Positions 1,455 through 44,568 of a DNA stretch of 55,505 nt are shown in pieces; the stretch's first letter is position 1; each line of letters opens with the position of its first letter. A program made the translations under genes and the position numbers. The DNA comes from Deferrisomatales bacterium (GTDB lineage Bacteria; Desulfobacterota; Deferrisomatia; Deferrisomatales; JACRMM01): contig JAWSUI010000023.1 of the NCBI GenBank assembly GCA_033551855.1, forward strand, positions 1-55,505, given 5' to 3'. A model generated the notes under the pieces. It was not told the origin of the DNA. It did no database searches and saw nothing but the letters and a program-made list of their open reading frames with translations.

Positions 1455-1484
1455 CTTGTAGCAGGAGCCGCTTGCGGCCGTCAA
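1455..1484 (-). promoter_or_regulatory. Putative sigma70 promoter of livK
   Basis: TTGACG (1484-1479), 18 nt, TGc-TACAAG. Confidence 0.45.
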
Positions 1485-1497
1485 CCGGATTGGACGG

Positions 1498-1707
1498 CCG
1501 GGACTCCCCCCCTGCCCGGCACGCGGGGTCCGGGCACCCCTGCGCTCCTCCCCTCAATCCGCGGCGATGCGAAGGGGTGACCCCGCAGGCCCCGGTGCGG
1601 CGGGCTTCACCCCTTCGCGCCGGACTCGGCGGGTCGGTCGATGCGGTACGGGGCCGTTCTCCGGGGCTCCCGGACTGCGCCCCCCGAGGCGGGTCCCGTC
1701 GGCCAGG
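1498..1707. mobile_element. Degenerate copy of MITE family 1
   Basis: Interior aligns with 5135-5310; left end CCGGGACTCCCC resembles the terminal repeat; right end uncertain. Confidence 0.55.
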
Positions 1708-1909
1708 AACGGTCCAGTCGGGTTGAAGGTCGGGGCAGTGCGCGTCGCCGGCTGTTCCCCCCCCGGGGGCGGCGGACGGCTACGCTCACCGCCTCCGGAC
1801 CGAAACGCGGTGACGAATCCCGGTCGGGGTCGGGTCACACGGGACGGGGGGCCCGCGACGGGGACGGATGTTTCGGGCGGTCAACCGCGGACCGCTCTCG
1901 AGCCGCGCC

Positions 1910-2617
1910 CTACAGGCCCAGATAGGCCCGCCGGACGTCGTCGTTTGCCAGCAGGCGGTCCGCCTGGTCCTCGAGGGTGATCCGGCCGTTCTCCATCACG
2001 TACCCCCGGTGGGCGAGCTTCAGCGCCAGGTTGGCGTTCTGCTCCACCAGGAAGATCGTCGTCCCTCCCTCCCTGTTGATCCGCTCGACGATCTCGAAGA
2101 TCCGCCGGACGATCAGGGGTGCGAGGCCCAGAGAGGGCTCGTCGAGCAGGAGCAGCTGGGGCCGCGCCATCAGCGCCCGTGAGATGGCGAGCATCTGCTG
2201 CTCGCCCCCGCTCAAGGTGCCTCCGGCCTGGTTGCGGCGCTCCGCCAGGATCGGGAACAGGTCGAAGACGTGGGCCAGGTCCGCTTTGACGCCTTCCTTG
2301 TCGCGGCGCAGGAACGCTCCCATGTCGAGGTTCTCGGCCACCGTGAGGAGGGGGAAGATCCTCCGCCCCTCCGGCACCTGGGAGATCCCCAGGGAGACGA
2401 TTTCGTCGGGGCTCCGGTCGTGGATCGGCTTCCCCTGGAAGAGGATCTCCCCGGTCCGCGGCGGTGCGATCCCGCAAATCGACATCAGGGTGGTGCTCTT
2501 GCCGGCGCCGTTGGCGCCGATCAGCGAGATGATCTCCCCCTCTTCCACCACGAGCGAGACCCCCTTCAGGGCCTGGATGTTGCCGTAGTAGGTCCGGATG
2601 TCCCGCAATTCCAGCAT
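1910..2617 (-). CDS. livF: Branched-chain amino acid ABC transporter ATP-binding protein
   Basis: Walker A GANGAGKS, QVPEGRRIF, signature LSGGEQQML, Walker B LLLLDEPSLGLAP, LVEQNA. Confidence 0.95.
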   Translation of the reverse strand: MLELRDIRTYYGNIQALKGVSLVVEEGEIISLIGANGAGKSTTLMSICGIAPPRTGEILFQGKPIHDRSPDEIVSLGISQVPEGRRIFPLLTVAENLDMGAFLRRDKEGVKADLAHVFDLFPILAERRNQAGGTLSGGEQQMLAISRALMARPQLLLLDEPSLGLAPLIVRRIFEIVERINREGGTTIFLVEQNANLALKLAHRGYVMENGRITLEDQADRLLANDDVRRAYLGL

Positions 2618-2736
2618 GGGGAGACTCTCACGAGCGTGATGGGAAGCGGACGGCAGCGAGGGGAGGGGGGATCCCTTGTGGCCGCCCGACGTCGCCGCCG
2701 GCCCCCGCTCCGCCCACGGGCCGGCACAGGCGCCGG

Positions 2737-2765
2737 ATGTTACGGGGCGGGTCGTTCCGGGTCAA
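2737..2765 (-). promoter_or_regulatory. Putative sigma70 promoter of livF
   Basis: TTGACC (2765-2760), 17 nt, TAACAT (2742-2737). Confidence 0.65.
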
Positions 2766-2778
2766 GCACGGGGCTTCC

Positions 2779-3109
2779 CCCGGTTCCGCCGGCTGGTCGG
2801 CAGGCGGAGTCCGGGAGCCCCTGCGTTTCGCCCCGCAACCCGCGGCCATTCGAAGAAGTGTCCCGGCAGTCCCCGGTGCGCCGGGCCTATGAACGAAACC
2901 ACCTTCCTTGAATCCCCTCTCCCCCCGGGAGAGGGGCCTGGGGTGAGGGCAACCGGCCCGCGACTGGTCGGCGTTTCATCCCTCAGGGTGACCCGAAGGT
3001 CATGGGCAGCTCACCCGCTTGCGCCGGCCTCGTCGACTCGGTGGAGGCGGTGCGGGGCTGCACTCCTGGGCTCCCGGACTCCGCCCCACAGTGTGGTGGC
3101 GGATTCCGG
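2779..3109. mobile_element. MITE family 1 copy with nested insert
   Basis: Ends CCCGGTTCCGCC and GGCGGATTCCGG; TTCC on both flanks (2775-2778, 3110-3113); perfect internal 18-bp inverted repeat GGCGGAGTCCGGGAGCCC at 2803-2820 and 3068-3085. Confidence 0.75.
2889..3010. repeat. Repeat module E (REP-like CCCCTCTCCC..GGGAGAGGGG..GGGGTGAGGG hairpin) nested in the MITE
   Basis: Inverted copy at 43326-43446; absent from the collinear MITE at 5123-5330. Confidence 0.8.
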
Positions 3110-3376
3110 TTCCCAGTCCGGATCGGCGCCGTCGGTCTTCGGCCCGAGGCGGACCGGGATCGGCGCCGGGTGCAACTCGTCGGCGGAAAAGGGAGGCGGC
3201 GGTCCCCCCTGTCACGTTTTGGAGACTGCGGTTCCGCGGGCGCTTGCTCGTGTGCTTGTGTGCAGACCCTGGGCCGTGTCGAAGCGGGGTGCCGGGGGAG
3301 GAGCGGTGGCACGGACGTTGCCAACTGGGGCAGGGACGTCATCGATCCCCGACAGCCCCAGCCGAGGCCCCCAACG

Positions 3377-4954
3377 ATGCAGTTCATGCCGAGAAGCCGA
3401 CCTGCCACAACCATTCTCCGTAGATTCGTTCTTGCTTCGCTGCTGGCGCTCGCGGCCGCGCCCGCCTGGGCCTGGACCGTCACCGTCGCGTGGGACTCCA
3501 ACCCCCCTTCCGAAAACGTGACCGGGTACATCCTGCACTACGGCACGACGTCACGCACGGCGCCCGGGTTCGCGGCGTACGCGTCCCACGTGGACGTGGG
3601 GAACGTGACCCAGCACTCCGTAGCCCTACCCGATGACGGGGCGACCTACTACCTGGCCGTCGTCGCGTACAACGCCTCGGGGCTGCGCAGCGACTACTCT
3701 GCGGAGGTCTCGGCGGCCCCGACGACGGCGGCGACGCTCACCATCTCCGCTCGCGCCGGCGCCGGTGGCTCCATCAGTCCCAGCGGCTCGGTCAGGGTCG
3801 ATCGGGGCGGGAGCCAGTCGTTCGAGATTGCCCCCTCTTGGGGCTACCGACTGGCCGACGTCCGGGTCGATGGGGCGAGCGTGGGCGCGGGCACGACGCA
3901 CACCTTCCCCAAGGTACACGCCGACCGCAGCATCACGGCCGTTTTTGCTCTGGCTCAGGAGACCGACGGGTTTGCGGATTCCTGGAAGCTCCACTACTTC
4001 GGGACCCTCGACGTGGCTGCAGACGCCGACCCGGACGGGGACGGGATGACCAATTGGGAAGAGTATCTGTACGGGACGGACCCGACCGAGCCGGGCCCGA
4101 ACCCAGCCCTGACGCCCGCCGTGCGGGCCCCGGTGAGCGGCGGCACGGTCACGTCCCTCTCGCCGGAGCTGTCGGTGTACAACGCCCTGAGCACTCCCCA
4201 GGGGGAGCCGAAGTACGAATTCGTGCTCGCCAGCGATCGGGGGATGGACCAAGTGGTGGCCGCGGCATCCGGGATCGAGCAAGGGACGGACGGGACGGTC
4301 ACGACCTGGTCGGCCCCCCAGTCCTTGCAGGACCGGACCCGCTATTACTGGAGGGCTCGCGTCGTTTCGGGAGCAGCGGCGAGTGAGTGGACCCCCGTGT
4401 GCACCTTCTATGTGGACACGTCCGACACCGCGACCCGGTCGGAGGTGGAGGGAAGCGAGTACGTGGCGGTGCGCAGCGAGGTCCAGTTGGAGGTCGACGA
4501 TCCGGCCGCGCTGACCCGCGGCGTGGTAGTGGATCTTGCTGCGGCGGCGGTACCCTACGACTACGTTCTGACGGTGGGGTCCGTGGAGGGGGCGCCGACG
4601 CCCGCCGACGGGGCACGCGTCTCGGGGCGGGTGGTGGAGCTCGGCCCCCACGGGCTGCGCTTTGCGAACCCGGTGAAGATCCTGCTTCCGTACACGCAGC
4701 AGACCCTCGACGATGCCGGCGTGACGAGTCCGGGGGAGCTGGCCGTCTTCACCTACAACACGACGTCTCTGGCGTGGGACGAGGTGCCTGTGGTCGCCAT
4801 CGACTATTTGGGCCGGCGCCTCGTGAGCGAGGTGGAGCACTTCTCCCTGTATACGGTCGGGGCCGCGGCCTCCCCGAGTCCGGGAGCGCCGCCGGCTGGG
4901 GCGACCGGGGGAGGGGGCGGCGGTGGGTGCTTCCTCCAAAGCCTCGGCTTTTGA
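3377..4954 (+). CDS. Secreted multidomain surface protein (FN3-like, InlB-B-like repeat, Ca-binding DxDxDG repeat, ZU5-like region, Gly-rich GGCF C-terminal tag)
   Basis: Signal peptide ...LALAAAPAWA; VAWDSN..VTGYILHYG..YYLAVVAYN..SDYS; DADPDGDGMTNWEEY..GTDP; ELGPHGLRFANPV..EHFSLY; ends GGGGGGGCFLQSLGF. Confidence 0.8.
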   Translation: MQFMPRSRPATTILRRFVLASLLALAAAPAWAWTVTVAWDSNPPSENVTGYILHYGTTSRTAPGFAAYASHVDVGNVTQHSVALPDDGATYYLAVVAYNASGLRSDYSAEVSAAPTTAATLTISARAGAGGSISPSGSVRVDRGGSQSFEIAPSWGYRLADVRVDGASVGAGTTHTFPKVHADRSITAVFALAQETDGFADSWKLHYFGTLDVAADADPDGDGMTNWEEYLYGTDPTEPGPNPALTPAVRAPVSGGTVTSLSPELSVYNALSTPQGEPKYEFVLASDRGMDQVVAAASGIEQGTDGTVTTWSAPQSLQDRTRYYWRARVVSGAAASEWTPVCTFYVDTSDTATRSEVEGSEYVAVRSEVQLEVDDPAALTRGVVVDLAAAAVPYDYVLTVGSVEGAPTPADGARVSGRVVELGPHGLRFANPVKILLPYTQQTLDDAGVTSPGELAVFTYNTTSLAWDEVPVVAIDYLGRRLVSEVEHFSLYTVGAAASPSPGAPPAGATGGGGGGGCFLQSLGF

Positions 4955-4980
4955 AGGCAGCAATCCCTGTGCGCGCCAAG

Positions 4981-5005
4981 GGGCCCCGGGTCACACCCGG
5001 GGCCC
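4981..5005 (+). terminator. GC-rich hairpin downstream of the surface-protein gene
   Basis: GGGCCCCGGG-TCACA-CCCGGGGCCC perfect 10-bp stem, no strong U-tract. Confidence 0.45.
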
Positions 5006-5122
5006 TCGTCGTGTAAGCCTCGGCGGACGCCGCGCTCTCGGCCCCGGGTCCCGGGACCGGTGCCGGCGGCGCGGCGGGGCTCCCGGACCCCGCTTGCCGG
5101 GCAGGGGGGAGTCCGAGAAGGG

Positions 5123-5330
5123 CCTGGATCCACGGGCTGGTCGGCGAGCGGAGTCCGGGAGCCCCTGCGTTTCGCCCCGCAGTCCGCGACACTTCGAAGA
5201 AGTGTCCCAACAGTCCCCGGTGCGCCCGGCCTCACCCTCTTGCGCCGGCCTCGTGGGGTTGGTGGATGCGGTGCGGGGCTGCACTCCCGGGCTCCCGGAC
5301 TCCGCCCCATAAGGTGGTGGTGGGTTCCGG
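5123..5330. mobile_element. MITE family 1 copy
   Basis: Ends CCTGGATCCACG and GGTGGGTTCCGG; flanks AGGG/AGAG (one mismatch); internal inverted repeat 5148-5164 and 5289-5305. Confidence 0.75.
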
Positions 5331-5343
5331 AGAGTGCCCGGGC

Positions 5344-5372
5344 TTGAGGGCCCGGATGGCCTGTGCTACGCT
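5344..5372 (+). promoter_or_regulatory. Putative sigma70 promoter of the DUF1844 cluster
   Basis: TTGAGG, 17 nt, TGc-TACGCT. Confidence 0.55.
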
Positions 5373-5435
5373 CCGCAACTCAGCGATATCCGGTGAAAAA
5401 TTCGGTTGTCTCGAAGAAAGGGACGGAGGTTCGGG

Positions 5436-5825
5436 ATGTCCGACGACAGGAGTTTCACGGTCCGGGATCGGCGCGGGGTCAAGGTGGAGGGCACTTCGGA
5501 CGAAGGGAAGGGTACCGAAGGTCCGGAGGCCGGGCCTCCAGAGTCGAGTCTCGGCGGGGATGCCACGCTGCCCCCCGTGGATTTCGCGGGCTTCATCCTG
5601 GGTCTGGGTCAGACGGCCCTCGCCTGTCTGGGGGAGATCCCCGTGCCCGGCACCGGGGAGATCTCGGTGGACTTGGAGCAGGCGCGCCACACGATCGATA
5701 TCCTGGACATGCTCGAAGCGAAGACGCAGGGCAACCTCAGTCCGGACGAGCAGCGGCTCCTCCGGACCCTGGAGGAGGAGCTCAAGCTCAAGTATGTTCG
5801 GCTCACACACAAGAGGCCCGTCTAG
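5436..5825 (+). CDS. DUF1844-like protein
   Basis: FTVRDRR N-terminus; LPPVDFAGFILGL..ALACLG..DLEQARHTIDILDMLEAKTQGNL..EQRLL; GGAGG RBS. Confidence 0.8.
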   Translation: MSDDRSFTVRDRRGVKVEGTSDEGKGTEGPEAGPPESSLGGDATLPPVDFAGFILGLGQTALACLGEIPVPGTGEISVDLEQARHTIDILDMLEAKTQGNLSPDEQRLLRTLEEELKLKYVRLTHKRPV

Positions 5826-5844
5826 AGCGTTCGCGCGGGAGGCC

Positions 5845-7722
5845 CTGCCCCCGAGTGCCCACGGCTGCCGCGGGCGGGCAGCGGCCGGCTCCGCCGGGGG
5901 GGCCGGCGGCGGGGCCTGCTGCCGGCTGAGGCGTGCGTTCCTGGGCGCGGTCTTGCTGGCGGCCTTGACGTGTGGGCTGAGCGCGGCGGCCTCCAACGTC
6001 CCGCACAGTGGGAGTGCCGCGGCTCCCGAGGGGTTGGCGGAGCTCCTGCTTCCCCTGCAGGGGGAGAGGTACACCGGGGCGGATGGCGACCGCGCCCTCC
6101 TGGCTGCGGCACTGTTGGGCAGAGGAGCAGCCGCCTCCAGCCTCGCGGAGGCCGAGGCCTTCGGCCTCTTGGCGGCGGCTGCCGCTCCCGGAGATCCGAG
6201 GCCTGTCGCCTTTCTCGCCCGGGTGTACTTTCCCGGTCGGCCTTCGGCGGCGTGGGTGGAGGCCTGGCGGTACCTGGTTCTGACCCTCCAGGATCCCTGG
6301 TTTCAGGGCGTCGGGCTGCTGCGTCTCGGCGCCAGCGCGGTTCTGGCCGCGTGGGCGGCTGCGCTGGCGCTGCTGGCCGCGGGACTCCCCGGGCGAGCCC
6401 GCCTCATTTTTCACGACTACCGGGACTGCTTTTCACCGGGGTTTCGAGGGTGGACGCCGGTCCTGCTCCTGGTCCTCATTGCGCTGACCTCGTGGACCGC
6501 AGGGGTCGGGCCGGCGCTCTTTGTCCTCCTCCTCGGCCTCGCGCTGGCTCCCTATTACCCGCGGCGCGCCCGGTGGGCCCTGGGGCTCTCCCTGGGCGTG
6601 GGGTGCCTCCTGGGTCCCGCCCTGGGTCTCCTCTCCGGGGTGTACGGGACACCGGGGGAGAGAGCCTGGGCGCTCTATCGCGTCTGGAAGGGGGACGCGG
6701 GGGACGCGCTCGAGGCGGACCTGCGGCGGCATTTCCCCCCGGACGATGCCCGGGGTCTGTTCGCTCGCGCTCGGGTGGCTCGGCGCCAGCAGCAACTGGA
6801 GGAGGCTGCGCTCTTCCTCGAGCGGGCGCTGGTGGTAGCCGGCCCGGGGCGGGCCCTCGTCCACCAGGAGTTGGGTACCGTGCGTTTTCTGCAGGGACGA
6901 GGGGAGGAAGCCCTGGGAGAGTTCTCGGCGGCGGCCGCCGCGGATCCCCGGAACCCCCTCCCGTGGCTGAACCGCCACATTCTGCACTTGCACCGTCTGG
7001 AGCTCGGTCTCGCCGACGAAGCCATCTCGCGGGCCCAGGCCCTCGGTTCTGCCGAGGAGGCCCGCATCCGAAGGCTCCCGCTGGAGCCTTCGCGGCAGCT
7101 CGTGCCTGCGGCCCCGCCCATGCCGAAGGAGTGGGTCCTTGACGAGTTGCTGCGTCCGGCGGCGGTCCGGGCGACCTGGGTCGGGCAATTGGCGGGGGGG
7201 CTGCTCCTGCCGTTTCGCGCCTTCGATCCGGCTCTCCTGGGGTTCCTGGCCCTCGGGGCATTCCTCCCCTTCGCGAGCAGCGGCAGCGGGCGCAGGAGCC
7301 ACCGGTGCCCCTCCTGTGGACTGGGCGTTTGCCCCCGTTGCGGGCGGCGGGTGAGACAGACCCTCCTGTGCCCGGCGTGTTGGGCTGCGGAGCACCAGCC
7401 CGATGCCGACGCGGCCGAGAAGACCCGTCACCTGAACCGGAAGGCCCGGTGGCAGGCCCGCACCGTGCGGTGGGTGCGCGTCGGCCAGCTGGTGCTGCCC
7501 GGCTGGACGGGCTTCCTTGTGACGGGAGCACCCGCCCACCTGGCCCTTGGCCTCGTCTGGGCCGCCGTGCTGGGGTGGACGGCCCTGTCCGTTCTCTACC
7601 CGATTCCGCTTCTTCCCTGGTCGGCCCCAGGCGTTGCCCCCGGCCCGGTCGCGGTGGCCCTGGCGGCCCATGCGGTGGGGGCTTGGGTTTGCTTGCGCGG
7701 ACCCACCCCGGGGCGGGGGTGA
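5845..7722 (+). CDS. Membrane protein with TPR repeats and a Cys-rich zinc-finger-like segment (start uncertain)
   Basis: Several hydrophobic helices; TPR-like segment VHQELGTVRFLQGRGEEALGEF; CPSCG..CPRC..LCPAC; stop 6 nt before the next gene. Confidence 0.65.
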   Translation: MPPSAHGCRGRAAAGSAGGAGGGACCRLRRAFLGAVLLAALTCGLSAAASNVPHSGSAAAPEGLAELLLPLQGERYTGADGDRALLAAALLGRGAAASSLAEAEAFGLLAAAAAPGDPRPVAFLARVYFPGRPSAAWVEAWRYLVLTLQDPWFQGVGLLRLGASAVLAAWAAALALLAAGLPGRARLIFHDYRDCFSPGFRGWTPVLLLVLIALTSWTAGVGPALFVLLLGLALAPYYPRRARWALGLSLGVGCLLGPALGLLSGVYGTPGERAWALYRVWKGDAGDALEADLRRHFPPDDARGLFARARVARRQQQLEEAALFLERALVVAGPGRALVHQELGTVRFLQGRGEEALGEFSAAAAADPRNPLPWLNRHILHLHRLELGLADEAISRAQALGSAEEARIRRLPLEPSRQLVPAAPPMPKEWVLDELLRPAAVRATWVGQLAGGLLLPFRAFDPALLGFLALGAFLPFASSGSGRRSHRCPSCGLGVCPRCGRRVRQTLLCPACWAAEHQPDADAAEKTRHLNRKARWQARTVRWVRVGQLVLPGWTGFLVTGAPAHLALGLVWAAVLGWTALSVLYPIPLLPWSAPGVAPGPVAVALAAHAVGAWVCLRGPTPGRG

Positions 7723-7728
7723 ACCGGC

Positions 7729-8736
7729 ATGCCGCTCCAGGGAAACATCTCCTCCTTCGGGGTCTCCGAGATCCTCCAACTGATCTCCCACCAGGGCAAG
7801 ACGGGATCCCTGGAAGTCGAGACCGCAGACGGCGTTGCCCGGCTGCGCTTTCGGGACGGACGCCTTCTGGAGGCCTGGCCCGACCGGCGCATGCCGGCCG
7901 AGCTCCTCGGGACGCTCCTCGTCCGCTCGGGGCTCATCACCTCGGCACAGTTGGAGCACGCCCTGAGGGTCCAGCGGCAGAGCCTGCGGCGCGTCGGCGA
8001 CATCCTCGTGGCGTCCGGTGCCCTGCGAGCCGAGGATTTCCAGACGGTGCTGTCCCTCCAACATCGGGAGACGGCGTACCGATTGCTCCGGTTGCGGCAG
8101 GGCAAGTTTCGGTTTGTCCCGGAAGCCGTGGAGGCGGAGGAAGGGGTCAGCGTTCCCCTGGAAGTGGCGGAGCTCCTGATGGAGGGCTTCCGCCAGATCG
8201 ACGAGTGGCCAAGGATCCTAGAGCGGGTATCCTCCGGGCAGTCGGTGTTCCGGAGGACCTCCGCCTCTCCGGAGGAGGAGCTGACCCCGGCGGAAAGGGA
8301 CGTGTACCGACTGGTGGATGGCAGCCTCACGGTGCGCGACGTGGTGGACCGCGCACGCCTCGGGCAGTTCGCCGCCTGGGAAGCGTTGGCGGGCCTCTCG
8401 GAGAAGGGCCTCGTCGTGCCCGTGGGCACGGCCCGCCGTGGGGGTCGAGAGGCCGCCAGAAGGGGGCCGGGGTGGTTGCCTGATTTTCTGCTGGGCACGG
8501 GTTTGGCCCTGCTGGCGGCCGCGCTGCTCGGGGTGTTCGCCGGGCAGGGTCTCCGGGGGTGGGGCCGTCTCGTGCAGGCGGGGGCCGAGGGGAGGGCCGA
8601 GGCGGCACGGGTAGCGGAGCGGGGCCGGAGCTGGGGGGAAGGGGAGTCGGGGGGTGGGGGTCTCCCATCCCTCCGAGAAGAGCGGCGCGATACCGGTCCT
8701 GCGGACGCCCCGGACGCGGCAGGGGGCGGGAACTGA
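7729..8736 (+). CDS. DUF4388 (PatA-N-like) domain protein
   Basis: MPLQGNISSFGVSEILQLI..GKTGSLEV; LGTLLVRSGLIT..QLEHAL; LLMEGFRQIDEW; C-terminal TM helix. Confidence 0.85.
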   Translation: MPLQGNISSFGVSEILQLISHQGKTGSLEVETADGVARLRFRDGRLLEAWPDRRMPAELLGTLLVRSGLITSAQLEHALRVQRQSLRRVGDILVASGALRAEDFQTVLSLQHRETAYRLLRLRQGKFRFVPEAVEAEEGVSVPLEVAELLMEGFRQIDEWPRILERVSSGQSVFRRTSASPEEELTPAERDVYRLVDGSLTVRDVVDRARLGQFAAWEALAGLSEKGLVVPVGTARRGGREAARRGPGWLPDFLLGTGLALLAAALLGVFAGQGLRGWGRLVQAGAEGRAEAARVAERGRSWGEGESGGGGLPSLREERRDTGPADAPDAAGGGN

Positions 8737-8817
8737 CGCCGGGTTCGGCCGTGCCCGGGAAGCACCCCGTGTCTCGCCGGGAGAAGGGTCTCGTCGTGGG
8801 TTGCGGGAGGCGGCGGA

Positions 8818-9600: not shown

Positions 9601-9639
9601 CCACTCCGGGAAGGCGCCCTCCTCGCCGCCCAGCGTTCC

Positions 9640-9800
9640 GGGGCTCCCATCCCGCCTCGACCGATTCTCCCAAGCCCGCAGAAACGGGTGAAGCGGGGCG
9701 TACCCGCTTCCTCGCCAACGCCTCGTCCGAATATCGCGGATTGCGGGGCGGAGCGGAGGGGCTTCCCGAGCCCGAGTACGTGCCAGGCGGTGGATCCAGG
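9640..9800. mobile_element. MITE family 1 copy (left end unclear)
   Basis: Ends CCCGAGTACGTGCCAGGCGGTGGATCCAGG; interior aligns inverted with 44370-44515 and directly with 31190-31258. Confidence 0.7.
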
Positions 9801-9883
9801 GGGGGCACTGTTGGGTTGAAGGCGGCCGGTCCTCTGCAGTACCCTGCGCCTCCCGGTCCTCGACCCGGCAAGGAGTCCCCTCG

Positions 9884-11566: not shown

Positions 11567-11648
11567 GAGGGGTTCCTGCCTCCGCCCTTGCCACCCGGGC
11601 CGGGACCGGAAGCCCTTCCGCACGGTCCGCCGCCGCGCCCCACCCCCC

Positions 11649-15451: not shown

Positions 15452-15519
15452 GGCGTTTCCCCCTCCATGGGACGATGACCGACAGCTTATTGGAACCCAG
15501 GAGGGGGGAGGGCGGCAAG

Positions 15520-15561
15520 GGGCTCGCGAGTCCCGAGCACGTGCCAGGTGGAGGATCCAGG
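15520..15561. mobile_element. MITE family 1 right end (truncated copy)
   Basis: CCCGAGCACGTGCCAGGTGGAGGATCCAGG. Confidence 0.65.
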
Positions 15562-15574: not shown

Positions 15575-15605
15575 TTGACCCTTCCCCGGGGCCGTGTGCT
15601 ATCAT
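15575..15605 (+). promoter_or_regulatory. Putative sigma70 promoter of the pyr operon
   Basis: TTGACC (15575) and extended -10 TGc-TATCAT (15600-15605); 19-nt spacer is long. Confidence 0.55.
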
Positions 15606-15674: not shown

Positions 15675-15706
15675 CCTTCTCCGCCAGAGCGAGAAGGTTT
15701 TTTTTT
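15675..15706 (+). terminator. Intrinsic terminator / attenuator in the pyr leader
   Basis: CCTTCT-C-CGC-CAGA-GCG-AGAAGG stem followed by T9, between the promoter and pyrR. Confidence 0.75.
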
Positions 15707-16017
15707 GGGCTCATCCGGGAAACGGCCGGGTGGGTCCGACCACTCCGGCGGCCGATGCCGGACGCCCCGACGCTTGCGAGCCCTCGGGTCCTCCGGAACG
15801 CCCGAAGGGACCACAGGCCCAACGGGGAGTCGGTCATCGAGCGGCCGACCGCCTGCGCCGGCGGACCCACCCGGCCGTCCGCGAGCACGGATACCCGTCA
15901 TTCTCCGGAAGAGCCTTTTGGGGCTCGTTCAGGAGTCGGTCGGACCCACTCGACCGTCCTTCGGAACGAGGAGGCCCCCGTCGTTCCCCGGAAGAACCTT
16001 TTTCTCGAGGTGAGACC

Positions 16018-26435: not shown

Positions 26436-26647
26436 TAGCACCAGGCCGGGAGCTGAGCCAGAGTCGGGCGCGGGGCCTCCTGGAGAACGGGCAGGCGGCC
26501 TTGGAACGATGCTCCGGGCGCACCGAAGGGCCGCAGGGCCGCTCGAAACCGCTTCGCGAACTGCACGGCGCGCCGGGACCCTGCCCGCCGGAGGGAAGGT
26601 CTCGCGCCGAACGAACGCGGAGACCCGCTCGCTCGTCGCAGTATTAG
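26436..26647. repeat. MITE-like repeat family 2
   Basis: Aligns inverted with 41398-41600 over about 190 nt; ends TAGCAC...GTATTA. Confidence 0.7.
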
Positions 26648-31142: not shown

Positions 31143-31169
31143 AGGGCGCGCATCCGGGCCCCCCGGCCT

Positions 31170-31258
31170 GCTGGGACACTTCTGCGAAGTGCCGCGGATT
31201 GCGGGGCGGAGCGGAGGGGTTCCCCGACCCCGAGCACGTGCCAGGTGGTGGATCCAGG
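31170..31258. mobile_element. MITE family 1 copy (left end unclear)
   Basis: Ends CCCGAGCACGTGCCAGGTGGTGGATCCAGG; interior is the reverse complement of 5160-5210. Confidence 0.7.
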
Positions 31259-31271: not shown

Positions 31272-31301
31272 TTGACACGCGGGGGCGCTGGGGTGGATAA
31301 T
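31272..31301 (+). promoter_or_regulatory. Putative sigma70 promoter of the tRNA
   Basis: TTGACA, 18 nt, GATAAT, 15 nt before the tRNA. Confidence 0.7.
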
Positions 31302-31316
31302 CCCCTGTCCCGATTG

Positions 31317-31393
31317 GGGCCCATAGCTCAGCTGGTGAGAGCTGCCGGCTCATAACCGGTCGGTCCCTGGTTCGAATCCAGGTGGGCCCACCA
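31317..31393 (+). tRNA. tRNA with CAT anticodon, most likely tRNA-Ile2 (lysidine)
   Basis: Acceptor stem GGGCCCA/TGGGCCC, anticodon loop CTCATAA, GTTCGAATC T-loop, ACCA end; no initiator features. Confidence 0.9.
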
Positions 31394-32623: not shown

Positions 32624-32640
32624 ACGGCGAGGAGGAGACG

Positions 32641-33363: not shown

Positions 33364-33427
33364 GACGCCAGCCCACCCGAAAGCCGGCGGGGGCCGCGTC
33401 GGGAGGGAGCGAATTTGGACGGGTGGA

Positions 33428-33785
33428 GGAAGGAGGGAGGGCGGGCAGCCGCCCCGGAAACGGGGAGGAAAGTCCGGGCTCCATAGGGCAGGGTGCTGGG
33501 TAACCCCCAGTCGGGGTGACCCGAAGGAAAGTGCAACAGAGAGCAGACCGCCGGGCTTCGGCCCGGTGAGGGTGAAACGGTGAGGTAAGAGCTCACCAGC
33601 GGCCCGGGCGACCGGGTCGGCTCGGCAAACCCCACCCGGAGCAAGACCAAATAGGGGAGCGCTACGAGGGCTGCCCGCCCCAGGCTCCCGGGTAGGTCGC
33701 TCGAGGCCTCGGGAGACCGAGGTCCCAGAGGAATGGCTGCCGCCCCGCGAGGGGCACAGAACCCGGCTTACAGCCCTCCCTTCCC
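33428..33785 (+). ncRNA. rnpB: RNase P RNA (type A)
   Basis: GAGGAAAGTCCGGGCTCC, GAAAGTGCAACAGA, GGTGAAACGG, GGCAAACCCC..GGAGCAAG, ACAGAACCCGGCTTA; complementary ends GGGAGGGC/GCCCTCCC. Confidence 0.96.
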
Positions 33786-33914
33786 TCCACCCGTCTCCAT
33801 CTCGCCTCCCGTCGGATCGCTGGCCGTCCGGCCTGGGAGGTCGAACCGAGGAGGCGGTCGTCACGATGGGGCGTGGGTGCGATCCCCGGGCGCCCGGCGC
33901 GAGAGGGGTTTGCG

Positions 33915-34466: not shown

Positions 34467-34516
34467 GCGGCCTTCGAACCCCGCCCACTACTGCCCCCCT
34501 GTCCCCGCATCCCAGC

Positions 34517-34616
34517 CCGGAATCCACCGTTAGATGTTCGGACGGGGTCGGGGAGCCTTGGAGCGGAGGCGCTCCCCGACCCCGACCCCGAGCACGTGCC
34601 AGGCGGTGGATCCAGG
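34517..34616. mobile_element. MITE family 1, complete 100-bp copy
   Basis: Terminal repeats CCGGAATCCACCG and CGGTGGATCCAGG; CAGC on both flanks (34513-34516, 34617-34620). Confidence 0.8.
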
Positions 34617-34726
34617 CAGCCGGGGCCGCTTGCGCGTGCCCCCGCAGTGTGGTTTTCTGTCCCTTCCTTCGGCCGGGTCCCCTGGGGGCCGTCGCCGGCC
34701 CCTCCATCGGCACAAGGAGTGCGAAG

Positions 34727-38142: not shown

Positions 38143-38283
38143 ACGGCCTCCCCCTCCCCTCACCCTCGTCTCCACCGCGTGGACGGGGCAGGGGGCTCGG
38201 AGGGCCCCGCCTCCGGTCCGGCGGAACCCTGGCGGCAGTGACACAGAGCGCTCGGGCGAGCAGTTGGGCGTCCCCTTCGCGAG

Positions 38284-39720
38284 GTGGTCGGATTGAGAGA
38301 GCCCTTCCTGCGCAAGTGGCACCGGTACCTGGCCGTCGTGGTGGCCCCTTTGATCGTTCTGCAGACCCTCAGCGGCCTGCTCCTCACCGTGGACTTCCTG
38401 TTCCGGTATCAGCGCCAAGTCCACGGCTTCCTTGCCGAAAGAGACCTGGCGCAGGTTGCGGAGCTTTGGGACCTGTTCCTCTTCCAGCTCCACTTCGGGG
38501 CGACTCGGGTCGGGTACCTGACCAACATCGCCGTGGGCCTGGGTCTGTTGGTCTTGATCGCGACCGGCGTGCCCATCTTCGTCCTGGTGCAGGCGCGCCT
38601 CGTCCGGCGCTGGAGGGGCGTCACGCAGGCAGAGGCAGCGCCCCCCCCCACGCCCGGCGAAGGCTGGGAGGCGGCGGATTGGCCGCGGCCGCGCAAAGCC
38701 CTGGCGGCCCTGCTGTCGTCCGCTGCGATCCTCGCGGTCCTCTCCGTGTACGCCTTCTACCGTTCCTACACCCTGAGCGCGCTGCACGTCCCCCACGCCC
38801 AGGCCGCGGCCGACCTCCAGGTGGAGGTGCTCGAGGCCCACACCGCGCTCGAGGAGTTGCTGGCGACCGGTGGCGTGGGCCGGGTGGACGTGGTCTGGGA
38901 CCGCCTGGAGTCCGCGCGCCGGATGGCGGAGGAGCTGCTCTCCGGCGTGCGCGCCGAGGGATTGCGCATTCCTGCCCTGGGGGAAACGACGCTGCGGCAG
39001 GAGATGGAAGAGATCCGAACCGGTATCGGTCGACTCCAGGATCTCACGGTCCAGCGCTACGTGGGGGCAACCCCCTCGGTTCCCGAGTCCCCTGGAGCCA
39101 GAAACGCGTACCTCGAAACCCTCCACGAGGTGAACGAGGGCCTCCAGGCATTTCGAGGGAATCTCGTGGGCGCCGTCCTCGGTGATCAGGAGCGGCTCCT
39201 CGCCACCAGCGTCCTCCTGCTCTCCGCGGCCTTCCTGGTGACCGTGGTGCTCGCAGTCAGTTACTACCGGTACGAGGCGGAACGGGTCCGCCACCTGGAG
39301 CTCGTCCACGAGGCCAGGGAGCGTGCCGAGGAGGGGGAGGAGTTCTTCCGCCAGGTCGTCCAGCAGGCAGCCGACCCGTTTCTGGTCTTCTCCCCCGACG
39401 GCCGCGTGATCGACGCCAATCGGCTCGCGTGCGCCTGGCTGGGATACGGGCGAGAAGAGCTTCTGGCGCTCTCGGTCGCGGAGGTGCTCGACGACTGCCC
39501 CTGGGAGGAGATGGCGGCTACCTGGGCAAGGATGGAGCCAGGGGCTCCTGTCTCCGTGCGTGCCCGGCACCTCCGGAGGGACGGCTCCACCGTTCCGGCC
39601 GTGGCCAACCAGGGGCTTCTTCGCTGGGGGGAGCGCCGGCTGATCCTCCACCTCGCCCGGGAGGTCGGCGGCACGGGAGACCGTCGCATGGGGTTTCGGG
39701 AAGGTCCTGTGCAGGGATAG
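38284..39720 (+). CDS. Membrane protein: PepSY-TM-like N-terminus, helical extracytoplasmic domain, C-terminal PAS domain
   Basis: LRKWHRYLAVV..SGLL, QLHFG; further TM helices; PAS motifs DGRVIDANRLAC..LGY.REELL and RRDGS..P. Confidence 0.7.
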   Translation: MVGLREPFLRKWHRYLAVVVAPLIVLQTLSGLLLTVDFLFRYQRQVHGFLAERDLAQVAELWDLFLFQLHFGATRVGYLTNIAVGLGLLVLIATGVPIFVLVQARLVRRWRGVTQAEAAPPPTPGEGWEAADWPRPRKALAALLSSAAILAVLSVYAFYRSYTLSALHVPHAQAAADLQVEVLEAHTALEELLATGGVGRVDVVWDRLESARRMAEELLSGVRAEGLRIPALGETTLRQEMEEIRTGIGRLQDLTVQRYVGATPSVPESPGARNAYLETLHEVNEGLQAFRGNLVGAVLGDQERLLATSVLLLSAAFLVTVVLAVSYYRYEAERVRHLELVHEARERAEEGEEFFRQVVQQAADPFLVFSPDGRVIDANRLACAWLGYGREELLALSVAEVLDDCPWEEMAATWARMEPGAPVSVRARHLRRDGSTVPAVANQGLLRWGERRLILHLAREVGGTGDRRMGFREGPVQG

Positions 39721-39793
39721 CGGGTCCGGCCGCGCGAAGGGCAGCGCCCACCCGGCCGCTGCCCTTCGGATTCCCCTACCCTCGGAGTGAGCG

Positions 39794-40003
39794 TCAGGTA
39801 TGGGATTCCTTCATGGAGCAGGTGCTGATCCCGAGGAACTGGCTGATCGGGCAGTACCCCACGACCGCCGTGGCGATGGGAACCAGGCCGACCAGCGCAA
39901 GATACGCCGCGGCCCCCTCGATCACGAACCACAGGGACAAGAGGAGCACCCCGAGAGCCACACGGAAGATACGGTCCGACATCGAACATACGTTGTGGGT
40001 CAT
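39794..40003 (-). CDS. DUF2892 (YgaP-like) membrane protein
   Basis: NV...DRIFRV.LG, two TM helices, TAVVGYCP...LGISTC; GGAGG RBS. Confidence 0.88.
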   Translation of the reverse strand: MTHNVCSMSDRIFRVALGVLLLSLWFVIEGAAAYLALVGLVPIATAVVGYCPISQFLGISTCSMKESHT

Positions 40004-40292
40004 GTCCCAACCTCCTTCCCCCGCCTACGTCCTCACGATAACCACGGATTCCAGGCACGCAACGGCCCGGCTCTCTCCTCTGCCCGGTCGCCGCACGCGG
40101 CCGATCCAGGCGGATCGCGCGTCGCCGAGCCTCCCAGGGTTTCCGGCGACGGCGTTGGCGGACGCGATGGACGTGCGTGACGAGGTGCCCGACGGGACCG
40201 TTGTACTTGTCGAGAGGAACAGCGGCCTCTGGGAGGCGGGAGGAGATCATGCGCGGGGGAACCTGGGCGACCCGCGCGCAACCCACGACGAA

Positions 40293-40323
40293 CAAGGGGT
40301 TACGCGGAACGCGTAACCCCTTG
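40293..40323 (-). terminator. Hairpin downstream of tRNA-Glu
   Basis: Perfect 14-bp stem CAAGGGGTTACGCG-GAA-CGCGTAACCCCTTG, 8 nt past the CCA. Confidence 0.7.
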
Positions 40324-40331
40324 ATATTACT

Positions 40332-40409
40332 TGGCGTCCCCAGGGGGATTTGAACCCCCGTCGCCGGCGTGAAAGGCCGGTGTCCTGGGCCGGGCTAGAC
40401 GATGGGGAC
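40332..40409 (-). tRNA. tRNA-Glu (TTC)
   Basis: Minus strand GTCCCCATCGTCTAG...CCGGC-CTTTCAC-GCCGG...GGTTCAAATCC...TGGGGACGCCA. Confidence 0.97.
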
Positions 40410-40472
40410 AGAGCAGTGAGCGTCCGGGTCGAAGAGCGGCTTCGGGACCGTCCCGGGCCCCGGAAGGGCGAA

Positions 40473-40501
40473 TAAATACCACGTCGGGCTGCCCTGTGCA
40501 A
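40473..40501 (-). promoter_or_regulatory. Putative sigma70 promoter of tRNA-Glu
   Basis: TTGCAC (40501-40496), 17 nt, TGg-TATTTA. Confidence 0.6.
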
Positions 40502-40523
40502 CCAGGATCACCAGGATCGCCGG

Positions 40524-40953
40524 CCTGGATTCATCGGAAGGCGCCGTCGGCAAGCGGAGTCCCGAAGCCCCTCCGTATTGGTTCTTCCGGTAAGCGACCG
40601 GGTGGTCCCGCCCACCCCGGCAGACGAGGCCGGGCTGCACGGTAGGTGCGCTGCCCCGCCGCATCCGGAATCCTCGCGACATCGCGACTCCCGAAGCGGC
40701 TGCTTGCGGCGAGCGGCCGTCCGCCCACGTGTTCGGGCCCACCCGATCGTCCCTGGACACGACTACCCGGTCATTTCCCGGATGATCCTTCGTCTTGCCC
40801 CGCAGTCCGCGGCAATTCGAGGAAGTGTCCCAGCGATCCGCGGTGCGTCGGGCATCACCGGCTTGCGCCGGCCTCGTCGACTCGGTGGATGCGGTGCGGG
40901 GCTGCACTCCTGGTCTCCCGGACTCCGCCCCACAATGTGGTGGTGGATTTTGG
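40524..40953. mobile_element. MITE family 1 copy with nested module D
   Basis: Ends CCTGGATTCATC and GGTGGATTTTGG; flanks CCGG/CCGA; 40861-40950 nearly identical to 3017-3105. Confidence 0.75.
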
Positions 40954-41397
40954 CCGACACCCGGATCGCCGACACCCGGAACCGACCCGTGGAATTGTCG
41001 GCGGGTGACGGGCGAAGCCCCTGAGCCCCGCGCTCGGAGTGGGAAACACGAAACTGGACCCGGATGGGGGGACCGACGTAGCATCGCGTCCCGGCTCGGT
41101 GCCGCTTTGGACGGCTTCGTGGCCTCGGGGAGAGGAGGGGAACAGTGGGCTGCCGAAACCGCCTTTCGGGCCGGCGCGGGGAGGGGGGGGCGGTCGCGAT
41201 CGGAGCTGCCGCCGACAGGTTGGGCGTTTGCTGATCCTCCTGCCGCTCCTTTGGGTCCCGGCTGTCTCCGAGGCGGCCGCGCAAGCGGTCCACCCGGAGC
41301 CCCAGGTGAGGACGGTCCTGTCGCCGGGGGGGACCGTGCAGGAGGACACGCTCACCTTGAGAGTGCTGGGGTTTCGAGTGGGAATCCGGTGCCTGTT

Positions 41398-41600
41398 CTA
41401 GCACGGCAACGAGCGATCGTTTCTCCGCGGGCGTTCGGCGTGAAACCTTCCCTCCGGCGGGCAGGATCCCGGCGCGCAGCGCAGCCCGCGAGGCTGTTTC
41501 GAGCGACCCTATGGCCGTTCGGTGTGCCCAGAGCCTCGCTCCAGGGCCGCCTGCCCGCTCTCCAGGACGGCCCCGCGCCCGACTCTGACGCAACCCTCGC
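41398..41600. repeat. MITE-like repeat family 2, second copy (inverted)
   Basis: Aligns with the reverse complement of 26450-26647. Confidence 0.7.
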
Positions 41601-41650
41601 TGCAGAAGCAAGCCCCTCTCCGGTGCTCCGACGAGGCGCTCCGGCGTCGC

Positions 41651-41887
41651 TCAGGCGCGCTTCCTCCGCCCCAACACCCCGGCACGCAGGCCCGCCTGCA
41701 CCGCCTTCTTGGCTTCCCCCAGGGAGTGGTAGGGGCCGACCTCGCCGCCGGTGGGCATGTGGATGACGTAGGTCTCGTCCAGACTCTCGATGTAGCCCAG
41801 ACAGGTCCCGTCCAGGAATATGCCGATCTTGCGGTAGCGCGCCCCGCGGGAAGGGGCGGCGGGCTCGGGTCGGAAAGCCAACCGCAT
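41651..41887 (-). CDS. Small hypothetical protein (78 aa)
   Basis: GGGAG RBS, ATG start, protein-like composition (YRKIGIFLDG..LGYIESLDETYVIH..GPYHSLGEAKKAV). Confidence 0.55.
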   Translation of the reverse strand: MRLAFRPEPAAPSRGARYRKIGIFLDGTCLGYIESLDETYVIHMPTGGEVGPYHSLGEAKKAVQAGLRAGVLGRRKRA

Positions 41888-42188
41888 GGGGTGAGCTCCC
41901 TCGGGACCGGGACGGCCACCGGATCCGCCTCCGCGAGACCGTCGAGCGGCCCGGCAGGGGCCGCGGCGGCACATCGGAGGAGCCGCCCCCTCTGCGGGTC
42001 GCGGAAGTCCGGGTCCGGGAGGGGGCGAGCCGGGGCGCAGCGTACCTCCTCCCCTCGCGTGCGCAAGAGTCTGCCGGCGCGGACGTGCTGGGCGGTCTTC
42101 CGGGGCCCCCCTTGACGCGACCCCCTGGAGGGCTAGGCTCCGGGCACGGGAAGAGACATCCCCCCTTTGCCGTCTCGGGAGGCAGGCC

Positions 42189-43292
42189 ATGAACAGAGTC
42201 TCCCTCGTCCTCGCGGCCGTGGGGGCCGCGATCTGGGCTTCAGGCTGCGGAGGCAGCGGGACCGGGCCGGCTGTCCGACCCCAGGAACCGTCTCCCCCCA
42301 TCGAGGATCCCGAGCCTCCACCGCAGGACCCGCAACCGCCCGCCCCTCCTCTCCCGGACGATCCGCTCCTGTCCTTCACGACCGTCGCCTCGGGGCTCAC
42401 CGCCCCCAAGGTCGTCACCCACGCGGGCGACGGGAGCGGCAGCCTCTTCGTCGCCGAGCAGACCGGCGTGGTGCGGATCTTGAGGGACGGGGCCACGGCC
42501 GTCAGCCGGTTCCACGTCCTCCCGGCAGACCCCGATAGGTCCGATCCTGCCAGCGAGGAGGTACTCCTCACGGTTCCCCAGCCCTTTGCCAACCACAACG
42601 GCGGCCAGCTCGCCTTCGGTCCCGACGGCTTCCTCTACGTCGGGCTCGGCGACGGGGGGAGCGGGGGAGACCCGGAGGGGAACGGCCAGAACCCGGGAAC
42701 CCTCCTGGGGAAGGTGCTGCGCATCGATGTGGAGTCCGGAGACGTACCCTACGGGATTCCCGCGGACAACCCCTTCGCTTCCGGGCAGGAGGCGTTGCCG
42801 GAGATCTGGGCCGGCGGCCTCCGGAACCCCTGGCGGTTCTCCTTCGACCGGGCGACGGGGGACCTCTACCTCGGGGACGTGGGCCAGAACCGATGGGAGG
42901 AGGTCCATTTCCACGAGGCCGGGTCGCCCGGCGGCGCGAACTACGGCTGGAACATCCTGGAAGGAAACGCGTGCTTCGACCCGCCGACGGGTTGCGTGCC
43001 TCCCCCTGGGTACTCTCCGCCCGTCCACGTGTACGGGCACCAACCGGAGTGTTCCGTCACAGGGGGCTACGTATACCGGGGGCCCGGAAACCCGGCGATG
43101 ACGGGGGGCTATCTCTACGGGGACTACTGCAGCGGCCGCATCTGGATCCTCCACCGTACGGGGGAGGGTTGGCGGAACGAGCTGGCAGCGGCAACCACGT
43201 ATCGCATCTCCACCTTCGGGGAGGACGAAGAAGGGCGCCTCTACGTCGCCGATCACACAGGTGGGGCGGTGCATCGCATCGACTCCCCCTGA
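42189..43292 (+). CDS. PQQ-dependent sugar (glucose/sorbosone) dehydrogenase family lipoprotein, apparently with an internal in-frame deletion
   Basis: Lipobox WASGC; NHNGGQLAFGPDG.LY.GLGDGG, GKVLRID, DNPF, GLRNPWRFSFD, GDVGQ, NYGW, SVTGGYVYRG, STFGED. Confidence 0.85.
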   Translation: MNRVSLVLAAVGAAIWASGCGGSGTGPAVRPQEPSPPIEDPEPPPQDPQPPAPPLPDDPLLSFTTVASGLTAPKVVTHAGDGSGSLFVAEQTGVVRILRDGATAVSRFHVLPADPDRSDPASEEVLLTVPQPFANHNGGQLAFGPDGFLYVGLGDGGSGGDPEGNGQNPGTLLGKVLRIDVESGDVPYGIPADNPFASGQEALPEIWAGGLRNPWRFSFDRATGDLYLGDVGQNRWEEVHFHEAGSPGGANYGWNILEGNACFDPPTGCVPPPGYSPPVHVYGHQPECSVTGGYVYRGPGNPAMTGGYLYGDYCSGRIWILHRTGEGWRNELAAATTYRISTFGEDEEGRLYVADHTGGAVHRIDSP

Positions 43293-43325
43293 ATCGTCGA
43301 TGCCCCGCCCCGGGCGATCCTCTGC

Positions 43326-43446
43326 AGAGTTGCCCATGACCTTCGGGTTGCCCCGAGGGATGAAGCGCCGACCGGTCCCGGGCCGGTCGCCCTCACCCCA
43401 GGCCCCTCTCCCGCGGGGAGAGGGGATTCAAGGAAGGTGGGTTTCT
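43326..43446. repeat. Repeat module E, standalone inverted copy
   Basis: Reverse complement of 2889-3012; lies between convergent genes. Confidence 0.8.
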
Positions 43447-43477
43447 CCTATGGGCAGCCGGGCACGGGAACACGCGG

Positions 43478-44281
43478 TCAGCGGGGCCGGGAGTTGGGCC
43501 CCGGGGCGGCCGCGTCCTCGACCCCTTCGGAGGAAGAGCGGGGTCGCCAAGGCGGGGTGAGGTCCTGGAGCGGGTTGTGGCAGGGGGGGCCGACGCTGAA
43601 CAGAAACCGGCGAACCTGGCGGTCGGACCCGACGCGAATGACGCTCGCCGAGGAGGTCCCGAAGCGGCTGCCGGCGGGGGGGTGGAGGCAGAGGGGGTCC
43701 TGGCCGGGGGCCGAGGGCTCGTGGTCCGACAGGAACCCAGCGAGCTCGTCTTCCGTCGGCGGGTGCCCGCGCGAGGCGAACGTCTCCATCCGGGACAGGG
43801 AGCGCCGGGCCTTGGGGTCCCCCGGGTCCCGGAAGCGGGCGTTGGTGATCACGTGGCAGCCGGGGAGAAGCCGGTAGGTCTGGGTCCCGTCTGGTCCGTG
43901 GTCGATCACCGCGGCCCGGTCGGGGTCCGCGACGAGGAGCGTGTAGGCCTTGCACACCGGCGCGGCCCACTGGGCAAAGCGGTATGCCTCCTCGGTGGTG
44001 CCGTGCCGGAGGGTCTCCAGGACCACCGCGCCCCGGCTGCACAGGCTGGCGGAGTCCCGGCGAAGCGTCCCCTCGTGGTTGGCCAGGCCCGCGAGGACGC
44101 CGGCTTCGTTCACCCCGAGCCAGGTGCCGCCCGCCACCAGGTCCCTGGGCCCCCAGATGCGGGGCACGGAAGACAGGTCCCCCGGCCCGCGCCACGCGCG
44201 GTCCAGGATCTCGTCCCGGTTGGCCGCAAAGAGAACGGGCTCGTCCGGGAAGACCTGGAAGAAGAGGTGGAGGGTGCACAT
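43478..44281 (-). CDS. NRDE (TANGO2) family protein
   Basis: MCTL N-terminus, AANRDE, DLVAGGTWLGVN, SRG, GTSS. Confidence 0.92.
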   Translation of the reverse strand: MCTLHLFFQVFPDEPVLFAANRDEILDRAWRGPGDLSSVPRIWGPRDLVAGGTWLGVNEAGVLAGLANHEGTLRRDSASLCSRGAVVLETLRHGTTEEAYRFAQWAAPVCKAYTLLVADPDRAAVIDHGPDGTQTYRLLPGCHVITNARFRDPGDPKARRSLSRMETFASRGHPPTEDELAGFLSDHEPSAPGQDPLCLHPPAGSRFGTSSASVIRVGSDRQVRRFLFSVGPPCHNPLQDLTPPWRPRSSSEGVEDAAAPGPNSRPR

Positions 44282-44317
44282 GGGGAGCTCCCGTCCCCCC
44301 GGGGCGGGGGCTGGATC

Positions 44318-44346
44318 AGTCTAGCCAGGCGACGCCTCGGCGGCAA
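44318..44346 (-). promoter_or_regulatory. Putative sigma70 promoter of the NRDE gene
   Basis: TTGCCG (44346-44341), 17 nt, TAGACT. Confidence 0.6.
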
Positions 44347-44359
44347 CCGTCGAAGCCCT

Positions 44360-44568
44360 CCAGGGTTCCCCGCCTGGCACGTGCTCGGAGTCGGGGAGCC
44401 CCCCGCTCCTCCCAGCTATTCGCGCCATTCGGACGAGGCGTTGGCAAGGAAGCGGGTACGCCCAGCTTCACCCCTTTTTGTGGTGGCTTGGGCGAACCGG
44501 TCGAGGCGGGACGGGGTTACGCTCCACGGGTCCCCGACCCCGCCCGAGAATCTGACGGTGGATCTCGG
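44360..44568. mobile_element. MITE family 1 copy
   Basis: Ends CCAGGGTTCCCC and GGTGGATCTCGG; CCCT on both flanks (44356-44359, 44569-44572); interior combines modules seen at 9640-9800 and 34517-34560. Confidence 0.78.

Follow-up and report, generated by a model that had tools for sequence, protein, structure and literature searches.

The window examined here is the whole of a 55,505-nucleotide (nt) stretch of a Deferrisomatales genome (contig JAWSUI010000023.1, assembly GCA_033551855.1). It carries nine copies of a miniature inverted-repeat transposable element (MITE), each lying between genes and just upstream of a predicted sigma70-type promoter. The neighbouring genes are of livK type, livF type and TANGO2/NRDE type (beside the end at 44360), pyrR, acnA and tRNA-Met, in agreement with a first-pass annotation of this DNA, together with genes for tRNA-Glu, a Na/Pi symporter (9800) and a DUF1844 protein (5330). 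That annotation had proposed that a TTG hexamer starts exactly 13 nt outward from one end of the element, and that an IS1380-like transposase uses promoter-bound RNA polymerase as a landmark for harmless insertion. The copies and the predicted promoters are listed below, the latter as -35 box, spacer and -10 box; orthologous loci in relatives are numbered L and are called empty where they hold no element.

1455..1484, reverse strand: predicted promoter of the livK-type gene, -35 TTGACG (1484-1479), 18 nt, -10 TACAAG; boxes kept at empty loci L125, L127 and L128.
1498..1699, forward strand: degenerate MITE, promoter-facing end 1498, far end approximate (nhmmer model 3-189, envelope 1498-1703).
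2737..2765, reverse strand: predicted promoter of the livF-type gene, TTGACC, 17 nt, TAACAT; empty in L124, occupied at 13 nt in L123.
2779..3109, forward strand: MITE with an exact TTCC duplication and a nested repeat of about 123 bp at 2888-3010.
5065..5118, reverse strand: degenerate end of an older element, in a stack with the 5123 copy and 4 bp behind it; recognised by its inverted-repeat match to the end at 1498.
5123..5330, forward strand: full 208-bp MITE, 4-bp duplication with one mismatch; left-inverted-repeat (IRL)-type end toward the promoter.
5344..5372, forward strand: predicted promoter of the DUF1844 gene, TTGAGG, 17 nt, TACGCT; the orthologous site L129 holds an opposite-orientation element at 13 nt.
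9646..9800, reverse strand: MITE without its far end (model 1-155); 15-nt spacer across a G-run.
9816..9845, forward strand: predicted promoter of the Na/Pi symporter gene, TTGAAG, 18 nt, TACCCT; empty in L132.
15519..15561, reverse strand: short remnant, promoter-facing MITE end; direct motif matches, under the hidden Markov model (HMM) threshold.
15575..15605, forward strand: predicted promoter upstream of pyrR, TTGACC, 19 nt, TATCAT; empty in L133 and L134.
31153..31258, reverse strand: half MITE, the promoter-facing half (model 1-108).
31272..31301, forward strand: predicted tRNA-Met promoter, TTGACA, 18 nt, GATAAT; empty in L136.
34517..34616, reverse strand: internally deleted MITE with both ends present; exact CAGC duplication.
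34630..34658, forward strand: weak predicted acnA promoter, TTGCGC, 17 nt, TTTTCT after TGTGG; kept at empty L137; L138 occupied at 13 nt.
40473..40501, reverse strand: predicted tRNA-Glu promoter, TTGCAC, 17 nt, TATTTA; the preceding 9-bp gap is duplicated; empty in L140 and L141.
40524..40953, forward strand: MITE split by a nested repeat of another family (about 212 bp, 40578-40790); one-mismatch duplication.
44318..44346, reverse strand: predicted promoter of the TANGO2/NRDE-type gene, TTGCCG, 17 nt, TAGACT; similar boxes at empty L139 and L142.
44360..44568, forward strand: full MITE of a second subfamily; exact CCCT duplication.

Re-reading of these sites upheld the 13-nt distance at 1498, 2779, 5330, 15561, 31258, 34616 and 44360, as well as the two exceptions (15 nt at 9800, 13+9 nt at 40524), the exact duplications TTCC, CAGC and CCCT, and the one-mismatch duplications at 5123-5330 and 40524-40953. 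An HMM built from element sequence only placed ends at 1498, 2779, 5330, 9800, 31258, 34616 and 44360, and thereby also bore out the end at 1498, which had been set by eye; the remnant at 15561 and the split copy at 40524 were missed and rest on direct motif matches. At 5330 it is the other end of the element that faces the promoter, an exception in orientation.

The terminus of about 12 bp noticed at first does belong to a real repeat family, but the true unit is a 208-bp non-coding element with two distinguishable ends, L (CCTGGATCCACC) and R (CCAGAATCCACC). Within the window's assembly (4.24 Mb, 69.6% GC), it gave 251 non-overlapping matches amounting to 38.9 kb. We class it as a MITE because it is short and multi-copy, has terminal repeats and target duplications, and carries no transposase gene. 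An exact 4-bp duplication flanks 29 of the 79 full copies and an exact 5-bp duplication another 10, and none of the 79 shows direct repeats of 8 or 9 bp; of 321 distinct ends having full flanks, 275 open with CC. The copies have diverged from each other (median nearest-neighbour identity 88%), and related copies were found in three of the 40 relatives searched, namely both same-genus genomes and one same-family genome. The copy at 5123..5330 is predicted to form a long hairpin as RNA (z -3.3).

For the genome-wide analysis, ends were placed by the HMM with the flanks unseen, and the 46 non-CC ends were dropped. The enrichment of TTG at a fixed offset that had been anticipated from the window appeared as a sharp peak in 97 of the 275 remaining ends: 66 have TTG beginning at outward position 14 (binomial p 1.5e-72) and 31 at position 15 (p 2e-24), the background being 0.9% per position over the rest of the flanks. 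These hexamers probably belong to promoters, as had been supposed, judging from the TAnnnT -10 match that follows 16-18 nt past the hexamer in 53 of the 97 ends and at almost no other spacing; genome-wide, such a match accompanies 1.3% of TTG sites. For TTGAC, the -10 match is present in 27/50 cases beside a MITE (54%) versus 271/3754 in the genome (7%). The -10 signal is also found at free L ends that have no TTG at 12-17, where TAnnnT occurs at 36-39 in 15 of 45 ends (background 0.5% per position, p 5e-15), and it is therefore the whole promoter, not TTG alone, that stands in register with the element.

Tandem duplications of 9-16 bp over the spacer between end and -35 box, as at 40524 in the window, were also seen at C99:2695, C60:7287, C4:40257, C17:50481, C74:1466 and C41:10404. 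They likely arose by slippage between the terminal GG of the element and TTG, and they mask the original offset of 13-14 nt. Among the 53 tRNA genes of the window's genome, three have a MITE end of the HMM set 30-130 bp upstream, so that tRNA promoters are not the main target.

All nine window sites have at least one relative with the same boxes and no element. Since the boxes persist at element-free orthologous sites, they are host DNA, and the comparison of empty sites proposed in the first-pass annotation shows at nine of nine loci that spacer and TTG are not part of the element. In relatives, an element occupies the orthologous site at 13 nt in five cases, of which two are clear HMM matches (L123, L129) and three are degenerate ends placed by eye (L131, L135, L138). 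The copy in L129 lies in the opposite orientation to that at 5330, which suggests an independent insertion. When empty sites were rebuilt, 0 of 39 fell in a coding-like frame, versus 216 of 400 random positions.

Members of the IS1380 family have terminal inverted repeats starting with CC and produce target duplications of 4-5 bp. An autonomous insertion sequence (IS) with the same ends as the MITE, which the first-pass annotation had suggested looking for, was not found in the window's assembly, but a same-genus genome (G002) contains part of a transposase and, after it, an end, 13 nt, TTGACG, 17 nt and TAAATT, and full-length relatives exist elsewhere. The first 16 nt of the G002 end match MITE end L at 15 of 16 positions. 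The full-length relatives of the fragment have about 504 amino acids, and elements with both ends measure approximately 1.84-1.89 kb and come from records labelled Dehalococcoidia, Alphaproteobacteria, Gaiellaceae and Desulfomonile, among others; a plasmid collection gave one weak match. The proposed family assignment is backed by shared ends, the same offset and scores of 206, 235 and 212 bits for the proteins P0002, P0039 and P0080 against NF033539 (cut-off 180), even though the gene itself was not found in the assembly. The PF13701 match of the relatives reaches 91 bits (vs 34.7), and across Pfam and NCBIfam the linked transposase matches IS1380 models only, with no match to a Mutator-like transposase. 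It thus resembles IS1380 members such as ISEcp1 and ISPme1 in its above-cut-off match to NF033539 and PF13701, its CC ends and its duplications of 4-5 bp.

Four residues (D180, D182, D255, E399) are invariant across 38 transposase sequences, and the catalytic triad of a DDE (Asp-Asp-Glu) enzyme is probably to be chosen among them. The model of the transposase (mean predicted local distance difference test score, pLDDT, 83.6) has an RNase H-like fold and best matches the Tn5 and piggyBac transposases; a sequence search found no solved IS1380 structure. We infer that this clade of DDE transposases of about 500 amino acids moves the MITE in trans. Within residues 345-360, P0002 contains a conserved QxxLPF in a low-confidence loop, and the sister group described below has Q..LF at a nearby position. 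This resembles the beta-clamp motif, given as QLxLF in PMC4549789, a likeness of sequence that may or may not reflect binding.

To define the boundary of the promoter habit, we examined 226 loci, of which 208 gave a transposase frame and 199 one of at least 400 amino acids; 73 protein clusters were placed in a midpoint-rooted FastTree tree. IS ends were called with an end profile and a duplication bonus, blind to TTG, which replaced a noisy calling by complementarity only; a few wrong calls persist in the IS sets. When only sites with both ends called and full flanks are counted, 61 of the 85 sites of the clade of about 500 amino acids (support 1.0) carry TTG at 14/15, and 31 carry both boxes; the corresponding counts are 3 of 34 and none in other IS1380 lineages, and three of six and two in a small sister group. 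The promoter habit is restricted to one part of the IS1380 family. Genome G446 provides an internal control, with 11/18 for the clade's element and 0/6 for another IS1380 lineage. A separate metagenome set of 80 loci gave TTG at 14/15 in 26 of 41 usable right ends and 6 of 33 left ends. The duplications sampled from other IS1380 lineages are AT-rich or CTAG, and these lineages have no promoter peak.

The clade's protein has two insertions, an Arg-rich two-helix segment specific to the core clade at about residues 86-117 and another at about 131-151, both candidates for a role in targeting. It is doubtful that the Arg-rich insertion is the sole targeting determinant, because the sister group does not have it, and a search for a sigma region 4 mimic in it gave no profile match. 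Pattern searches for further sister-group ends returned mostly chance matches. In G042 (loci L350-L374), an element end present in 13 copies coincides with contig breaks; seven of the 13 flanks have TTG at 14/15, and no transposase could be assigned to this end.

The geometry became clear when we pooled the 106 insertions with an exact 4- or 5-bp duplication (39 MITE and 67 IS). With 4-bp duplications, TTG follows after 13 nt in 57 cases and after 14 nt in 4; with 5-bp duplications, the numbers are 0 and 14 (Fisher p 5e-12). The distance of exactly 13 nt thus holds for 4-bp duplications but becomes 14 nt for those of 5 bp, and what stays constant is the gap of 9 bp between the -35 box and the edge of the duplication nearest the promoter, observed at 73 ends, with every other gap at 7 ends or fewer. 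Copies with identical ends give both lengths (L109-L111), which excludes an error of end calling. The offset is independent of the spacer length between the -35 and -10 boxes, and the anchor is therefore on the -35 side. The duplicated bases themselves are unbiased in content, with 61 different duplications among the 67 of the IS set. DDE transposases usually cut with a stagger that leaves 5' overhangs; the template-strand nick would then be fixed 9 bp upstream of the -35 box, while the other would slip by 1 bp.

The signal is also oriented. In the MITE, TTG at 14/15 is found at 86 of 153 L ends versus 11 of 122 R ends. Among 31 IS with A (left) and T (right) at repeat position 16, the right end is toward the promoter 20 times and the left end once; among 50 with T at this position of both ends, all of one lineage, the right end is so placed 14 times and the left end 26 times. 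Position 16 of the MITE is mostly T in L (66/89) and mostly A in R (59/89), so that L corresponds to the IS right end. By correlation, position 16 of the terminal repeat is a candidate for what sets the end facing the promoter. MITE copies are also stacked 4-5 bp apart, and the promoter-side copy is nearer the consensus in 10 of 13 scored pairs; in two of the three contrary pairs, what was scored as two copies resembles one deleted element in two pieces, and the third pair is tied. Stacks with the newer copy at the promoter are as expected if one promoter is hit repeatedly.

Several other features were found in the window. Its RNA genes are RNase P RNA class A (33433-33786), tRNA-Met (31317-31393) and tRNA-Glu (40332-40409). 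The hairpin-rich repeat of about 123 bp within the 2779 MITE recurs at 43331-43443 and has 25 matches in the genome. Repeats of about 212 bp with GG...CC ends, of one family or related families, lie at 1-166, 15704-15915 and 40578-40790 (66-85 genome matches each); one copy interrupts the MITE at 40524, and another stands between pyrR and the predicted promoter upstream of it. A repeat of about 176 bp is present at 26472-26647 and 41403-41574 (22 genome matches).

We put the probability at roughly two in three that the MITE and the IS1380 elements sharing its ends are placed 9 bp upstream of sigma70-type -35 boxes through docking of the transposase on promoter-bound RNA polymerase holoenzyme. 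The transpososome would dock beside sigma region 4 or the C-terminal domain of the alpha subunit (alpha-CTD); the duplication would fall near -45 to -49, next to both, and insertion there would leave the core promoter intact. An intact core promoter would explain the approximately 250 copies and the stacks with the newer copy at the promoter. RNA polymerase would in that case act as the landmark, and insertion would be harmless, as first proposed. A complex prediction with the transposase and residues 515-604 of the host sigma70 scored 0.00, with an uncertain partner fold and without controls, and we count it neither way. The odds seem to us evenly balanced for a broader proposition, that a transposase able to bind sigma70 holoenzyme and to measure 9 bp from the -35 box to one fixed nick arose independently in a widespread IS1380 clade, with one terminal-repeat position setting the promoter-facing end, as a compact single-protein safe-harbour system of Tn5 fold.

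Several observations weigh against polymerase docking. No IS1380 transposase was detected in the window's assembly with PF13701, NF033539, tblastn or a paired-end scan of its 132 contigs, none of which is shorter than 1969 bp, such that a collapsed repeat could be missing; the link between MITE and IS consequently rests on about 16 bp of end sequence, the duplication length and the offset. Past this terminus of about 16 bp, the MITE interiors are unlike the IS ends. TTG at 13-16 is missing from 47 of 144 free L (promoter-type) ends, about one third. The promoters are predictions made from their boxes. Many of the clade's sites belong to Dehalococcoidia elements that are related to each other, and this lack of independence makes the p-value overstate the case; by protein cluster, TTG at 14/15 is found in 11 of the 14 that have a usable site. 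The absence of both clade insertions from the sister group, which itself scores 3/6, means that no targeting determinant is pinned down.

Other explanations were weighed on the same evidence. The transposase could make no contact with polymerase and simply prefer the bend that DNA takes along the upstream margin of this complex at the promoter, with polymerase shielding the core promoter. This passive reading of shape predicts the same dependence on both boxes and the same unbiased duplications, and DDE enzymes do favour bent targets; we nevertheless judge it unlikely, because slippage is confined to one nick and the other keeps its place to the base pair, because the promoter-facing end is predominantly of one type (86 versus 11 in the MITE, 20 versus 1 in the asymmetric IS), and because other IS1380 lineages do not have the habit. 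Still less probable is that a -35-like sequence 9 bp from the nick is recognised directly by the transposase, for example with its Arg-rich helical insertion (residues 86-117 or so), and that selection then keeps mostly intergenic insertions. The anchor on the -35 side and the restriction of this two-helix insertion to the core clade are consistent with direct reading, which does not account for the gap between 7% and 54% in -10 matches of genomic and MITE-adjacent TTGAC, the -10 peak at ends without TTG, or the presence of near-identical, young IS copies at promoter-like sites; the sister group, moreover, is without the insertion, and the insertion has no profile likeness to sigma region 4.

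Two further explanations are close to excluded. If insertion were untargeted and purifying selection retained only copies just upstream of promoters, the divergence of the MITE copies would have left time for it and the location of every tested site outside coding frames would follow, yet one would expect a broad range past a boundary, rather than one base pair tied to duplication length, and the peak is missing from other IS1380 elements of the same genomes; we give this a very small chance. The chance is smaller again that the spacer and the -35 box are borne by the element as a mobile promoter. Some IS1380 members do carry outward promoters according to passages of PMC9330008, but here the spacers differ at every site, the duplication directly adjoins the CC end, and the boxes present at the empty orthologous sites of all nine window loci refute the idea.

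The closest parallel to polymerase docking comes from the TnGBS integrative and conjugative elements, the ISLre2 family (p-MULT 3) and the ISKra4 group (p-MULT 4), whose insertions keep a fixed distance from primary-sigma promoters, on the upstream side of the -35 box; a model of contact with polymerase has been proposed for TnGBS (Guerillot et al., 2014; PMC3942029). The IS1380 clade and its MITE act like TnGBS, ISLre2 and ISKra4 in this fixed distance, yet they are not members of those families. As reported for TnGBS in the same source, orientation is set by asymmetry of the ends, and both orientations occur when the ends are near-identical. These elements differ in having a Mutator-like transposase, repeats of 8-9 bp and an offset of 15-17 bp, where we find an IS1380 transposase of Tn5-like fold, repeats of 4-5 bp and an offset of 13-14 bp, equivalent to the fixed 9-bp gap. 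The yeast Ty3 element, cited in PMC3942029 for its targeting through TFIIIB/TFIIIC, likewise inserts at a specific position relative to a transcription initiation complex; it is a eukaryotic retrotransposon that uses Pol III factors through a described interaction, whereas here contact is inferred.

Within the IS1380 family, the members treated in the passages of PMC9330008 bring their own outward promoter, whereas the clade described here homes on host promoters. IS1380 and ISLre2 are over-represented between co-oriented genes in passages of PMC9208149 that give no fixed distance, and the main text of PMC3942029 makes no mention of IS1380. Our literature searches, with subscription papers outside their scope, turned up no account of IS1380 elements that target promoters. 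The present analysis of an IS1380 clade adds the 9-bp rule, a clade boundary supported by internal controls, the empty sites and the orientation rule.

In the literature covered, the bacterial enzymes described so far as guided by promoters are Mutator-like, and their contact with polymerase is a proposal. A second DDE family, unrelated to these, would offer a one-protein system in which natural non-targeting relatives serve as controls, and its exact geometry, with a 9-bp gap and one fixed nick, would make the polymerase-contact model directly testable. The positions of promoters in uncultured hosts can also be read to the base from the insertion sites, and the promoter habit would explain how this genome tolerates hundreds of copies.

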